From assembly GCA_021399345.1 (NCBI GenBank), contig JAAFKI010000022.1, forward strand, positions 1 to 50,608: DNA of 50,608 bases, in the 5' to 3' direction. Position numbers and translations under genes: made by a program. This DNA comes from Candidatus Heimdallarchaeota archaeon. GTDB taxonomy: Archaea > Asgardarchaeota > Heimdallarchaeia > Heimdallarchaeales > Heimdallarchaeaceae. Below the pieces are notes generated by a model. That model was not told the origin of the DNA, made no database searches, and worked only from the letters and a program-made list of their open reading frames with translations. Shown one piece after another: positions 1,817-6,064 of this stretch; the stretch's first letter is position 1; every line of letters starts with the position of its first letter.

Positions 1817-2791
1817 CTATTTTTCTAATTTGCTTCGAATAATTTTAGCAATCTGTTTTGAGATGATAGGAGGAACGGCTTCTCCAATCTGGTTAAACAT
1901 TGCCTCAACAGAACCTGTAAAAATAAAACTATCAGGAAAACTCATCAATCTAGCTTGCTCTCTCACAGATAAGGGCCTATCCTCAAGAGGATGGATAAAC
2001 CTCGATTTACCCATTACTGTTGGAGCCAAATCTTTTTCATCCAACTTAGTCCAATTTCTGTTTTCCCGTGATGCCCCCTTGAAGTAAACAGCTGCATGTC
2101 CTTTTCGAATCCCAATTCCTTCATTCTTCACCTGTTTTGCAAAAGGAATTCTAAAATGATTAGGGACATCATTTGGATAAGAAGGTGAAGGTAAATCTAG
2201 CATAACCTCTTCAACTTTTTTCTTTCTCTGAGAAACCATTTCCAGATAAACATTTGATATGAATACTCTATTCCGATAACTTGGGCAGCCATGCTTTTCA
2301 GAAGAGAGGAAGTTGAAATGTATCTTGTTATACCCTATGGATTTAAATTCCTCTTTGATAATTTCTTTGCCTTCTGAATCTACTATTGGAACCACATTTT
2401 CGATTACAAAATAACTTGGGGAAAGGTCACCAATAATTCTTGTTGCATGAAAAATCAAATCCCCTTGAGGTGTGTCATAAAAGCGCTCTAAGGGAGACTT
2501 TCTTCTTTTGGGATTAGCAGCTGTAAAGGGTTCACAAGGAGGAGAAGCTAAAACAACGTCAACTGAATCTTTCACTTCCTCAATTATTTCTAAACCGTGA
2601 ACTGTACGAATATCTCTAACCCAAACCTTCGAATTCGGAAAGTTATGTTTATATGTTTGGGCTGCTTTTTCATCAATTTCTATCGCCAATTTATCTTCAA
2701 AACCTTCCTGAACAAAACCTAAGCTGAACCCCCCTGATCCTGAAAAAAGATCTATAAATGAGAATTGTTTCTTTTCTGAATTAAGAGCCAT
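1817..2791 (-). CDS. C5-cytosine methyltransferase (Dcm/Dnmt2 superfamily), orphan
   Basis: Motif I DLFSGSGG, catalytic motif IV SPPCEPF, motif VI ENV, motif VIII RNR, motifs IX-X REQARLMSFPDSF...QIGEAVPP. Confidence 0.9.
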   Translation of the reverse strand: MALNSEKKQFSFIDLFSGSGGFSLGFVQEGFEDKLAIEIDEKAAQTYKHNFPNSKVWVRDIRTVHGLEIIEEVKDSVDVVLASPPCEPFTAANPKRRKSPLERFYDTPQGDLIFHATRIIGDLSPSYFVIENVVPIVDSEGKEIIKEEFKSIGYNKIHFNFLSSEKHGCPSYRNRVFISNVYLEMVSQRKKKVEEVMLDLPSPSYPNDVPNHFRIPFAKQVKNEGIGIRKGHAAVYFKGASRENRNWTKLDEKDLAPTVMGKSRFIHPLEDRPLSVREQARLMSFPDSFIFTGSVEAMFNQIGEAVPPIISKQIAKIIRSKLEK

Positions 2792-2814: not shown

Positions 2815-2892
2815 TGGTGGGGCAGCGCGGACTTGAACCGCGGATTTTCTCGGTGTGAGCGAGACATCATAACCAGGCTAGATCACTGCCCC
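2815..2892 (-). tRNA. tRNA-Val(CAC), CCA encoded
   Basis: Reverse complement GGGGCAG...TCTCG-CTCACAC-CGAGA...GGTTCAAGTCC...CTGCCCC-ACCA forms a complete cloverleaf. Confidence 0.95.
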
Positions 2893-2956
2893 TAGTTATT
2901 AGTTGATTAATTAGTAATTATTTATTTATTCTGATTGCTTCTTAAAACAGATATAA

Positions 2957-3177
2957 TGCCCCCGAGGTTAACTCTAAACATCATTTTAAGGGATTCACCC
3001 ACATCAGTTAGCTGAGCGCCTCAGGAGCAACTGTTGTCTACCAGGGTTGACCGTGTTTCACAGTGTAGAATGTCTCACTCTACTCAACAGGAGCCCGTAT
3101 GGTAGCCTATTGCCTTTTAATTGCGCTTTCTTTCCTTGTTGGCTAATGCCATCTCTAGAAAGTCCTCGATAAAGGCA
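2957..3177 (-). ncRNA. Unidentified structured non-coding RNA (about 220 nt, rod with Y-shaped tip)
   Basis: GC-richer island in AT-rich intergenic DNA. Nested complementary segments pair end to end, with G-U pairs favouring the minus strand. Two terminal hairpins carry UGAGACA and UGAAACA loops. Confidence 0.65.
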
Positions 3178-3245
3178 GTTGTACATTATTTCAATAAGTA
3201 TTGAAGTTTTTTGTCTTATACAAAAGAAAAATAAGAAAAATTAAG

Positions 3246-4319
3246 TCAAAGACTTTTCACTTCTTCAACTAAATCTTGATGTTTATCGAAATATTCTATT
3301 GAAGGTTTTAGAATATCATTCAACATTTTAGCTAAGCTCATTTTAAGATCTAATGGGTGAATAGCTCCTTCTAAATAACTTTCCTTAAAGGATTCATATG
3401 AGTTGTATATAAGATCTCCACCAAATTTTTCGTCTCTTTCAATTTTGAATTGATTAAACATATCAAAGACAATGAATTGAACCATTTCTGTAATGGGGTT
3501 TCCTGCAACTTGTTTAGGTGGACACTGAGCTTTTTTGATTTTCCTTACAACTTCCTCTTCACTATCATGTATGAAGATACAGGTATCAGGTTTGGATTTA
3601 CTCATCTTAGCATCTATCTGATCTGCAAGATCTGGAACAGAATCCGCATCCATCTTCTTTCCTATCCCTTGTAATCCTGTTAATAGGGGTGTATGAATAC
3701 AGCTTGGTTTTGTTCTTCCAAGCTTTTCAGCGGTATCACGAGCTAGCATGTGAGCTTTTCTTTGGTCCATTCCTCCATATGCTAAGTCTATTTCCATATC
3801 ATAGATATCAGCTACTTGCATAGCTGGATAATAGATAAAACCAGATTCTATTTCACCTTCAGCTTTTCTTCCCATCACAGGAAGTGTTCTAAGAACTCTA
3901 GTAAGGGTATTAGCTTTCGCAACTCTGATAACTTTTTCCCAGTAAGTAATTTTTTCAGCTAGTTCTGAAGCCCAAATATATTTGACGTTTGGCCCTTTTA
4001 CACCAAGTGATTCAAAGGCTTTCTTAAAATATTCTCCTGCAAGTTGAATCTTCTCCATATCGGCTCCCAGTTTGTTATTAATCCAACTGTGCCAATCAGC
4101 CAAGAAAATAATTACTTCGAAACCTGCTTTCATCAAATCTTTGATTTTATTACCACAAATAATACCTGTTCCTAGATGAACGAGACCAGAAAGTTCGTAT
4201 CCAATATAAGCTCTTGGTTTTTCTTTTTCTTCCAAAATCTTTCTAATTTCTTCCTCAAGGATAACTTCTTCAGTATTTTTTGTAACTAGTTTTATTCTTT
4301 CTTCAATAGACATTGACAC
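3246..4319 (-). CDS. tyrS: Tyrosine--tRNA ligase (archaeal/eukaryotic type)
   Basis: YIGYELSGLVHLG (HIGH-like), ADWHS, YPAMQVADI, GGMDQRKAH, KMSKS, IHPLDLK. Confidence 0.95.
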   Translation of the reverse strand: MSMSIEERIKLVTKNTEEVILEEEIRKILEEKEKPRAYIGYELSGLVHLGTGIICGNKIKDLMKAGFEVIIFLADWHSWINNKLGADMEKIQLAGEYFKKAFESLGVKGPNVKYIWASELAEKITYWEKVIRVAKANTLTRVLRTLPVMGRKAEGEIESGFIYYPAMQVADIYDMEIDLAYGGMDQRKAHMLARDTAEKLGRTKPSCIHTPLLTGLQGIGKKMDADSVPDLADQIDAKMSKSKPDTCIFIHDSEEEVVRKIKKAQCPPKQVAGNPITEMVQFIVFDMFNQFKIERDEKFGGDLIYNSYESFKESYLEGAIHPLDLKMSLAKMLNDILKPSIEYFDKHQDLVEEVKSL

Positions 4320-4483: not shown

Positions 4484-6064
4484 TTAAATTTGTTTAAATT
4501 CAATTATCTTCAAACTAGTTGGTTTTTTAGAAATTTCTCCTTTTCTTGCCCCAATTACAGTTTTAATTCCTTTTCCATCAGAACGGTCTATTAGTCTTTG
4601 AGTTATTATACCATCAATAACAAGAGTACTACCTTTTTCGATTTTTTCTAAGGATTCAAATATTTTTGCTGCTGAGCTTCTGAGAATTTCTTTCTGTTTT
4701 TCATCAAAAACAATGGCTTCCAGTTTTGTTTTAACTTCTTTAACTGCATTTGTTAAGTATTCAGGCAGCTCAACTTTTCGTATTTCTCTCCTAGGAGGAC
4801 GTTGACTAGTTGTCGGTCGATCACGATCATATGTTCGAGTACTAGGACGAGAACCAGATCGGGAACTAGGACGAGAACTAGGACGAGAACCAGATTGGGA
4901 ACTAGGACGAGAACTAGGACGAGAACTAGGACGAGTTCCAGAACGAGAATCATATCGAGTACGTGTTGATGCCTGCGATGGTCTTCTTGTTGTTGAAGTT
5001 GGTCTAGTGGTAGAAGGTTTTCGAGTAACTTTTTGCTCAATATCTTTTACAACTTTGGTATCTTTTCTAACGGTTTCAGTTTTTGCAGTTTTAGCTGGAG
5101 TTACCTTTTTAGTTGTAGGTTTTGGTTTCTTTACTTCAGTTTCTCTTTTGGACAATGAAAACTTCTTTAGTCTCTTTTTCTGAGGTTTTGATTTATCAAG
5201 AAACTCTTTAACTGTAACATCAGCATCTCTCCCAGTTAAGAAAACTGCTTTTTCTAATGGAACAGCTTCTTTCAAGGATTTCTTAGTTTCCGCTTCATTG
5301 AGGTCCTCGACTTCCTTTCCTTTTGGAGCTCGAGCTACAAATTCAACATGGGACACTTGGAGTAATTCTTTTAGAATTAAATCTCCACCTCTGTCACCAT
5401 CTAGAAAAGCAGTAACTGTTTTTTTTGCAATTAAATCAATTAATTGAGGAGGTATGCTTGTCCCGTTAACTGCTACTGTGTTATCAACACCAAATTTTAG
5501 AAGATTTATAACATCGGCTCTACCTTCAACAAGAATTGTTTTTTTCTGTTTTTCAAATCCAGGTCCAGCAGAAAACCCTTCATCTCCAAGACTAACAACT
5601 TGACTTGATTTTGAAGATTTTTTGATTCCCATGCTAATTGATGATGAAAAAGGACTAACATTTTGATCCCATTCACGAATGATTTCAGAAGCACGATCAA
5701 CAATAGTTTGACGCTTACTGACTCTTACATCAATGATTTCCTCTAGTTTTACACTGGAGCTGCAAGGTCCTACTCTATCAACAGTTTCGAGAGTAGCTGC
5801 TAATATTGCAGTTTCCATTCGGGATAAGCTTGATGGGATGATTATTCTCCCAGTAGTTTTTCCTTTTTTGCTACTAAGTTCAACACTAATTCTTCCAATT
5901 CTTCCAGTTTTTTGGAGTTCGCGAATATCGAGATTCTCACTCAAAAGCCCATCAGTTTGTCCATAAATCCCTCCAATTATGTCAGGCTTCTCAACGACTC
6001 CATCAATTTCAAAAGATGCTTTTATTTCATATTTTGTTGTTGAAGTATCTGTTTTTGCACCCAT
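4484..6064 (-). CDS. dnaG: Archaeal DnaG (TOPRIM primase-like, exosome-associated) with low-complexity insertion
   Basis: GVVEKPDIIGGIYGQTDGLL, ELQKTGRIGRI, VEGRADV, FLDGDRGG and C-terminal DGIITQRL. A K/T/R/S/P-rich insert precedes the C-terminal domain. Confidence 0.93.
   Translation of the reverse strand: MGAKTDTSTTKYEIKASFEIDGVVEKPDIIGGIYGQTDGLLSENLDIRELQKTGRIGRISVELSSKKGKTTGRIIIPSSLSRMETAILAATLETVDRVGPCSSSVKLEEIIDVRVSKRQTIVDRASEIIREWDQNVSPFSSSISMGIKKSSKSSQVVSLGDEGFSAGPGFEKQKKTILVEGRADVINLLKFGVDNTVAVNGTSIPPQLIDLIAKKTVTAFLDGDRGGDLILKELLQVSHVEFVARAPKGKEVEDLNEAETKKSLKEAVPLEKAVFLTGRDADVTVKEFLDKSKPQKKRLKKFSLSKRETEVKKPKPTTKKVTPAKTAKTETVRKDTKVVKDIEQKVTRKPSTTRPTSTTRRPSQASTRTRYDSRSGTRPSSRPSSRPSSQSGSRPSSRPSSRSGSRPSTRTYDRDRPTTSQRPPRREIRKVELPEYLTNAVKEVKTKLEAIVFDEKQKEILRSSAAKIFESLEKIEKGSTLVIDGIITQRLIDRSDGKGIKTVIGARKGEISKKPTSLKIIEFKQI
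4839..4949. repeat. 12-bp tandem repeat (GAACTAGGACGA and variants) encoding SRPS/SGSR units in DnaG
   Basis: About six copies of ACTAGGACGA interspersed with GAACCAGATCGG and GAACCAGATTGG variant units, all in frame. Confidence 0.9.

Follow-up and report, generated by a model that had tools for sequence, protein, structure and literature searches.

The closest described relatives of the RNA treated here are HgcG/Pab40/Pf7/Pho40 of Thermococcales and Afu4 of Archaeoglobus, among which Pab40, Pf7 and Afu4 each have three H/ACA motifs (PMC2377435; PMC4652768). Motifs 1 and 3 of Pab40 guide ψ2588 and ψ2016 of P. abyssi 23S rRNA, as shown experimentally for 2588 and in vitro for 2016, and ψ2016 is one of the two conserved pseudouridines of helix 69 (PMC2377435). 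Motif 2 of Pab40 is weakly active in P. abyssi, where its target has changed (PMC2377435). Active H/ACA motifs of Pyrococcus obey a 14–15-nt rule for the ANA box and have an upper stem of 6 bp (PMC2377435; PMC4652768). In Rfam, Pab40 is represented by RF00064 (PMC4652768).

No relevant paper on H/ACA RNAs of Asgard archaea came up in a literature search. Eukaryotic H/ACA snoRNAs are two-hairpin RNAs that carry H and ACA boxes and lack a kink-turn. In yeast, we take snR191, snR46 and snR10 to be the guides for helix 69, ψ2865 and A-loop ψ2923, respectively, and sR-h45 of Haloferax volcanii is presumably a two-hairpin H/ACA RNA that guides the helix 69 and E. coli 2586-equivalent sites.

The window (the whole stretch of 50,608 nucleotides analyzed here, from Candidatus Heimdallarchaeota archaeon) carries on its minus strand an element that is very probably a three-motif box H/ACA guide sRNA, the Heimdallarchaeial orthologue of Pab40/Pf7/Pho40/Afu4 (RF00064), and that most likely guides pseudouridylation of 23S rRNA. 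This sRNA is a real, conserved and unannotated RNA gene of a kind that is already known; it does not form a new class. Its recognition fills an annotation gap, namely an RNA missed in Asgard genomes by the Rfam cut-off, and removes a false lead toward a new class of tRNA-binding RNA, with no new principle involved. A three-motif guide for pseudouridines of helix 69 and the peptidyl-transferase center would be common to Thermococcales, Archaeoglobus and the archaeal group most closely related to eukaryotes, which fits with rRNA modification sites and an RNA-guided mechanism that predate eukaryotes. The evolutionary interest of the sRNA is modest and derives from its Asgard host.

The sRNA Gene, Its Homologues, and RF00064

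The gene is about 230 nt long (window 2946–3179, minus strand), single-copy and conserved, and lies in an ORF-free spacer between the tyrS stop codon and tRNA-Val(CAC), also on the minus strand, with a G+C content above that of its flanks. The elements that delimit it are as follows.

3199..3215, minus strand: putative BRE/TATA-like promoter (a run of purines followed by TTCAATA), kept at an unchanged distance in 21 homologous loci
2944..2947, minus strand: oligo-T run, a likely archaeal terminator; the T-run is conserved
2815..2892, minus strand: tRNA-Val(CAC) (ARAGORN and Rfam), a neighboring gene outside the sRNA

An earlier note on this DNA, made from its letters and open reading frames, had pointed to a discrete, structured and unannotated non-coding RNA gene with its own promoter. 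This is borne out, with transcription itself presumed, by conservation in 30 of 30 genomes of the family and by a folding z-score of −2.46 for a 261-nt stretch against dinucleotide shuffles (3 of 200 shuffles were as good). The A-run and TTCAATA that the note had seen upstream correspond to the conserved BRE/TATA-like box at 3199–3215. The purine run and TATA-like box occupy the interval 22–37 nt upstream of hairpin 1. A distance of 29 nt separates the first nucleotide of the TATA box from the G at 3176 near the base of hairpin 1, where transcription of the sRNA would be expected to start. A run of 4–8 T follows 10–14 nt past hairpin 3 in most homologues. About 30 nt upstream of the tRNA-Val(CAC) gene, within 2893–2945, is a separate A-rich/TATA-like box that is kept in relatives, and the gene encodes its 3′ CCA. 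Given a conserved promoter box and T-run of its own, and a separate box for tRNA-Val, the sRNA is most likely an independent transcription unit.

BLASTN found one homologue in each of the 30 genomes of the same family (f1), at identities from 98% down to 69%, with a conserved core at 2959–3177. Twenty-four full-length homologues were aligned, and this alignment is the basis for all pair counts, for RNAalifold and for a covariance model that was run class-wide. The model found exactly one copy per genome, in 28 of 30 f1 genomes, 20 of 22 genomes of family f5 and one of two of f7; the two f1 genomes that it missed hold contig-end fragments, which are visible by BLASTN. Under strict filters, the model gave nothing convincing in families f2, f3, f4, and f6. 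In the two f5 copies examined, motifs 1 and 2 keep both of their guide strands and motif 3 keeps its 3′ guide, and the 5′ guide of motif 3 differs from that of the window sRNA.

At gathering thresholds, Rfam returned two tRNAs only and nothing at the sRNA. The HgcG model RF00064 aligns with it from end to end (model positions 1–276; E 1.2e-11, 46.9 bits, below the cut-off of 77), and this is the sole RF00064 match in the 3.27-Mb assembly. Asgard orthologues score 44.9–51.9 bits (E about 1e-11 to 1e-13), all under the 77-bit gathering score. Standard annotation therefore overlooks the sRNA, and because it fails the formal cut-off it is filed as a divergent orthologue and not as a member that Rfam can annotate. 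The RF00064 seed is presumably confined to Thermococcales; a broader seed would annotate the Asgard orthologues. The earlier note had recognized no H/ACA pattern, a view contradicted by this match to the whole model and by covariation, which supports three H/ACA hairpins (see below). Its claim of novelty also lapses, as a match to a known family, named beforehand as what would remove that novelty, was found in substance, at a score below the gathering cut-off.

Three-Hairpin Fold and H/ACA Hallmarks

In the alignment of 24 homologues, a fold of three successive hairpins has 90.1% of its cells paired, with compensatory double changes in 27 of 56 pairs and a covariation score of 0.280, compared with at most 0.10 for controls with slid partners. 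None of 500 shuffles reached the values for pairing, double changes or covariation. With the alignment as its only input, RNAalifold returned three local hairpins and no long-range helix. The parts of the hairpins are listed below (RNA position k is window 3180−k); their assignment as H/ACA elements is a prediction throughout.

3108..3177, minus strand: H/ACA motif 1 (covariation and RNAalifold)
3171–3177/3111–3117, minus strand: motif 1, lower stem
3163–3170, minus strand: motif 1, 5′ guide
3118–3125, minus strand: motif 1, 3′ guide
3157–3162/3126–3131, minus strand: motif 1, upper stem
3154–3155, minus strand: motif 1, GA
3132–3137, minus strand: motif 1, bulge and GA
3138–3153, minus strand: motif 1, C-stem hairpin
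3108–3110, minus strand: motif 1, box AUA, with 15 nt between upper stem and box
3032..3107, minus strand: H/ACA motif 2 (covariation)
3100–3107/3036–3043, minus strand: motif 2, lower stem
3092–3099, minus strand: motif 2, 5′ guide
3044–3050, minus strand: motif 2, 3′ guide
3086–3091/3051–3057, minus strand: motif 2, upper stem with one bulged C
3084–3085, minus strand: motif 2, GA
3058–3064, minus strand: motif 2, 5-nt bulge and GA
3065–3083, minus strand: motif 2, C-stem hairpin
3032–3034, minus strand: motif 2, ACA box
2955..3029, minus strand: H/ACA motif 3 (covariation)
3019–3029/2957–2967, minus strand: motif 3, lower stem (11 bp)
3012–3018, minus strand: motif 3, 5′ guide
2968–2973, minus strand: motif 3, 3′ guide
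3007–3011/2974–2979, minus strand: motif 3, upper stem with one bulged U
3004–3006, minus strand: motif 3, U-GA
2980–2986, minus strand: motif 3, bulge and GA
2987–3003, minus strand: motif 3, apical element
2955–2957, minus strand: motif 3, degenerate box AUU

Each hairpin is supported by changes of its own. The upper stem of motif 1 is 99.3% paired, with double changes at four of its six pairs, and its lower stem also shows compensatory changes. The motif 2 hairpin is 94% paired in the 24 homologues and has double changes at five of the eight pairs of its lower stem; in its upper stem, alignment columns 105–139 are occupied by AU (13), CG (6), and GC (4), and columns 106–138 by CG (9), UA (8), and UG (7). 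The lower stem of motif 3 is 97.3% paired and includes five pairs with double changes, and its upper stem covaries strongly (AU12/GC8, GC12/AU10, and CG13/UA8).

In all three hairpins, covarying lower (7, 8, and 11 bp) and upper stems enclose unpaired strands that are invariant or nearly so in family f1. Across the 24 homologues these pocket strands stay invariant while the stems vary, and the predicted guide strands of motif 2, ACGGGC and CAACCC, are invariant in all 24 sequences. About six layers above each pocket, GA is conserved on both strands, with a short bulge ahead of the 3′ GA; this is the signature of a kink-turn and a predicted L7Ae site. In motifs 1 and 3, the bulge is 3 nt long and ends in U or G. 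The kink-turn of motif 2 is deviant: its bulge measures 5 nt, and the non-bulged strand reads UA or AA in some relatives. The small apical hairpins correspond to kink-turn C-stems.

The box after hairpin 1 is AUA in the window and ACA or AAA in relatives, 15 nt from the upper stem, and that after hairpin 2 is ACA, at 15–16 nt. In motifs 1 and 2, the box lies 14–15 nt past the first guide nucleotide that would pair with the target; this spacing and the upper stem of about six layers agree with active Pyrococcus motifs. Behind hairpin 3, the window has AUU at 16 nt, where some relatives carry AUA or ACA and f5 carries ACA. The host genome encodes the proteins of an H/ACA RNP, all above curated cut-offs: Cbf5 (TIGR00425, 414 bits), Nop10 (PF04135, 53.5 bits), Gar1 (PF04410, 38.8 bits), and two proteins of the L7Ae family (PF01248, 90.4 and 57.4 bits).

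The sRNA shares with HgcG/Pab40/Pf7/Pho40 of Thermococcales and Afu4 of Archaeoglobus the same hairpin order, the arrangement of three hairpins in tandem and a similar length (PMC2377435; PMC4652768). When compared with Pab40, it has similar pocket sequences in all three motifs, a transcript that would likewise start at hairpin 1, the same targets for motifs 1 and 3 (predicted for the Heimdall sRNA, established for Pab40), and a motif 2 that is the structurally irregular one in both RNAs. It differs from Pab40 in its AT-rich stems, in a host that is an Asgard archaeon and not a euryarchaeon, and in motif 3, the lower stem of which is about 1–2 bp longer and the ACA of which is degenerate (AUU) in the genus of the window. 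With sR-h45 of Haloferax it would share the guidance of the helix 69 and E. coli 2586-equivalent sites. With eukaryotic H/ACA snoRNAs it would have in common the chemistry, the protein core (Cbf5/dyskerin, Nop10, Gar1, and L7Ae/Nhp2), and overlapping targets.

Predicted Targets in 23S rRNA

A mechanism for the sRNA can be proposed from these features and from what is known of its relatives. An RNA of about 230 nt would be transcribed from its own BRE/TATA promoter, and each hairpin would be bound by L7Ae at the kink-turn and by Cbf5–Nop10–Gar1 at the lower stem and ANA box. The two pocket strands would then pair with 23S rRNA on both sides of an unpaired U-N dinucleotide, and Cbf5 would isomerize the exposed U to pseudouridine. 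In E. coli numbering, the predicted targets are 2496 for motif 1, U1915 for motif 3, and either U2586 (favored) or U2554 for motif 2.

In the metagenome-assembled genome (MAG) to which the window belongs (88.6% complete), no 16S or 23S rRNA gene was detected, so targets were read from the rRNAs of relatives. The 23S and 16S sequences of three of them (G025, G027, and G030) were searched, each with its own guide sequence, and sites were numbered by alignment to E. coli 23S rRNA.

For motif 1, both genomes tested give as their best site the U that stands two nucleotides 5′ of the conserved CCUCGAUG, with a 3′ arm of 4 bp and a 5′ arm of 7–8 bp. This site is E. coli 23S position 2496, a U in these archaea, beside the peptidyl-transferase center. 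Motif 1 is the only motif with a significant result against shuffled guides, of which 3 in 200 score as well. Its predicted target precedes the U in GGCUC by 15 nt, a distance equal to the 2588/2603 spacing of P. abyssi; on this ground, we infer that 2496 is the ψ2588 site of Pab40 motif 1. Another site for motif 1, with an 8-bp 3′ arm in the 23S rRNA of G025, was deemed a chance match: its segment is absent from G027 and G030, and it pairs with a non-conserved part of the guide.

The best or joint-best site of motif 3 is the U in the loop of helix 69 that corresponds to E. coli U1915 (arms of 4–6 and 5–7 bp); with the short arms of the window sRNA and no mismatches allowed, 52–57 of 200 shuffled guides score as well. 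This predicted helix 69 site is the ψ2016 site of Pab40 motif 3. Among f5 genomes, G068, G066, and G067 gave no 23S match and the 23S rRNA of G073 is fragmented, with no helix 69 sequence recovered for a comparison with the motif 3 guide. If motif 3 is active with AUU, Cbf5 of this lineage would tolerate a box other than ANA.

For motif 2, the three or four best-scoring 23S sites of all three genomes include two neighboring sites of domain V, U2554 (A loop) and U2586, with about 10 bp each; when limited to the short arms of the window sRNA, with no mismatch allowed, the motif does not score above shuffled guides. Pairing at U2586 would use the whole invariant ACGGGC and would include an internal G-A mismatch; pairing at U2554 would be contiguous in the GGGC and CAACCC arms (4 + 6 bp). 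U2586 is the site that was predicted by Muller et al. for Pf7 and Afu4 and is modified in haloarchaea (H. marismortui/H. halobium) (PMC2377435). In f5, the A loop changes at a guide-paired position with no compensation in the guide; at 2586, the target sequence stays the same and one G-C pair is added. On the strength of the Pf7/Afu4 prediction and haloarchaeal modification, of the use of the whole ACGGGC and of the uncompensated A-loop change, U2586 is the favored candidate over U2554. A high-scoring site at 23S index 1221 was set aside because it occurs in genus g4 only. Since complementarity statistics are weak for motifs 2 and 3, their targets rest mainly on homology and on the invariance of the guide strands.

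The GGGC of the Heimdall motif 2, in place of the Pyrococcus consensus GGUC, produces the mismatch at U2586 and matches the A loop perfectly over 4 bp. Motif 2 might have been retargeted to A-loop U2554 in this Heimdall family, or have two targets, with the ancestral U2586 mismatched; we regard this as possible but doubtful. The A-loop position is presumably the one that is pseudouridylated by snR10 in yeast, and retargeting would mean that an Asgard archaeon shares a eukaryote-type A-loop pseudouridine.

Clearly less probable is a more radical departure, in which the RNA forms an H/ACA-type RNP with at least one hairpin, motif 2 or 3 being the candidates, that no longer guides rRNA modification and acts on another RNA or as a chaperone of rRNA folding. 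The AUU box of motif 3 in the window would be in keeping with such a loss, as would the ambiguous target of motif 2, which does not stand above shuffled guides, its atypical kink-turn and its imperfect fit, and the weak activity and retargeting of Pab40 motif 2 in P. abyssi (PMC2377435). However, family divergence to about 70% identity and beyond has left the guides of motifs 1 and 2 and the motif 3 3′ guide invariant, which argues for a conserved pairing partner, and the best partners found are known pseudouridylation sites. A guide function of all three motifs in 23S rRNA is the reading retained here.

Two features of the rRNA genes themselves were noted in the course of the search. On contig G073:C8 (f5; minus strand, about 130–440), an extra segment of about 320 nt separates the A loop from GGGUUUAG (E. 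coli 2582) in domain V of 23S rRNA; this insertion is probably an rRNA intron, and the same contig carries two copies of the 23S 3′ end. With 4136 nt, the 23S gene of G030 exceeds that of its congener G027 (3424 nt) by about 700 nt; the extra length lies upstream of helix 69 and is probably an rRNA intron or an expansion.

The Nested Fold and the Neighboring Genes

All the complementary segments listed in the earlier note are present on the minus strand of 2957–3177, and every one of its helices can be drawn in the window sequence alone. The note had joined them into one long nested fold that ends in a three-way junction with twin hairpins, the 7-nt loops of which both begin with UGA and were read as T-loops. 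A new tRNA-binding or regulatory RNA, in which the twin T-loops grip the tRNA elbow, was suggested, and the position of the gene beside those for a tRNA and a tRNA synthetase would suit such a role. The homologues make this highly improbable. In the 24 sequences, the nested fold has 77.7% of cells paired, compared with 90.1% for the three hairpins, and RNAalifold predicts none of its long-range helices; columns 15–240 pair in 6 of 24 sequences and columns 60–182 in 7 of 24, and two of the listed helices each share a nucleotide with a neighboring helix. The long-range and junction helices are broken in many homologues, with no covariation, and the junction helix GUUGA/UCAAC has 55% of cells paired. 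In the second twin hairpin, 58% of cells pair. From the list of helices, only CUACCA/UGGUAG, as the lower stem of the middle hairpin, and GUAGAG/UUCUAC, as the first twin, hold up.

The proposed T-loops fare no better. The first, in hairpin 1, varies in sequence and in length (5–7 nt), and the second is the conserved UGA of a kink-turn strand. A repeated GCUCCUG and an alternative CUGUUG/CAACAG pairing, taken as signs of a second fold, are not conserved. The resemblance to RNAs that bind the tRNA elbow by paired T-loops (the RNase P S-domain, T-box, and L1 stalk) is thus confined to size, structure and the proximity of a tRNA gene, with loops that are here unconserved. This proximity is itself not maintained: the sRNA adjoins tRNA-Val in family f1, but the 1.5 kb around the two f5 loci checked are free of tRNA genes, and in f5 the linkage to tyrS is also lost. 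At the more distant tyrS loci searched, no copy of the sRNA is present. The separation from tyrS and tRNA-Val in more distant loci argues against a cis-regulatory tie to either.

Least credible of all is the earlier suggestion of a very divergent RNase P RNA or component, which a highly structured RNA of about 220 nt near a tRNA gene might bring to mind, since the genome has a canonical archaeal RNase P RNA gene on a separate contig (G000:C169:209206–209525; 151.8 bits, cut-off 84), no RNase P model matches the locus even at E up to 10, and only size, structure and tRNA-gene proximity are shared with archaeal RNase P RNA (RF00373).

The gene upstream of the sRNA encodes a class I tRNA synthetase of the Tyr/Trp type (3246–4319, minus strand; Pfam PF00579), relatives of which at 92–97% identity come from Candidatus Heimdallarchaeota MAGs such as AB_125. 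Upstream of tyrS, a gene at window 4484–6064 (minus strand) encodes a protein of 526 aa that contains a Toprim domain (DnaG-type, primase-like). On the other side, about 25 nt beyond the downstream end of tRNA-Val, is the start of a C-5 cytosine DNA methyltransferase gene (window 1817–2791, minus strand; PF00145, 166.7 bits).
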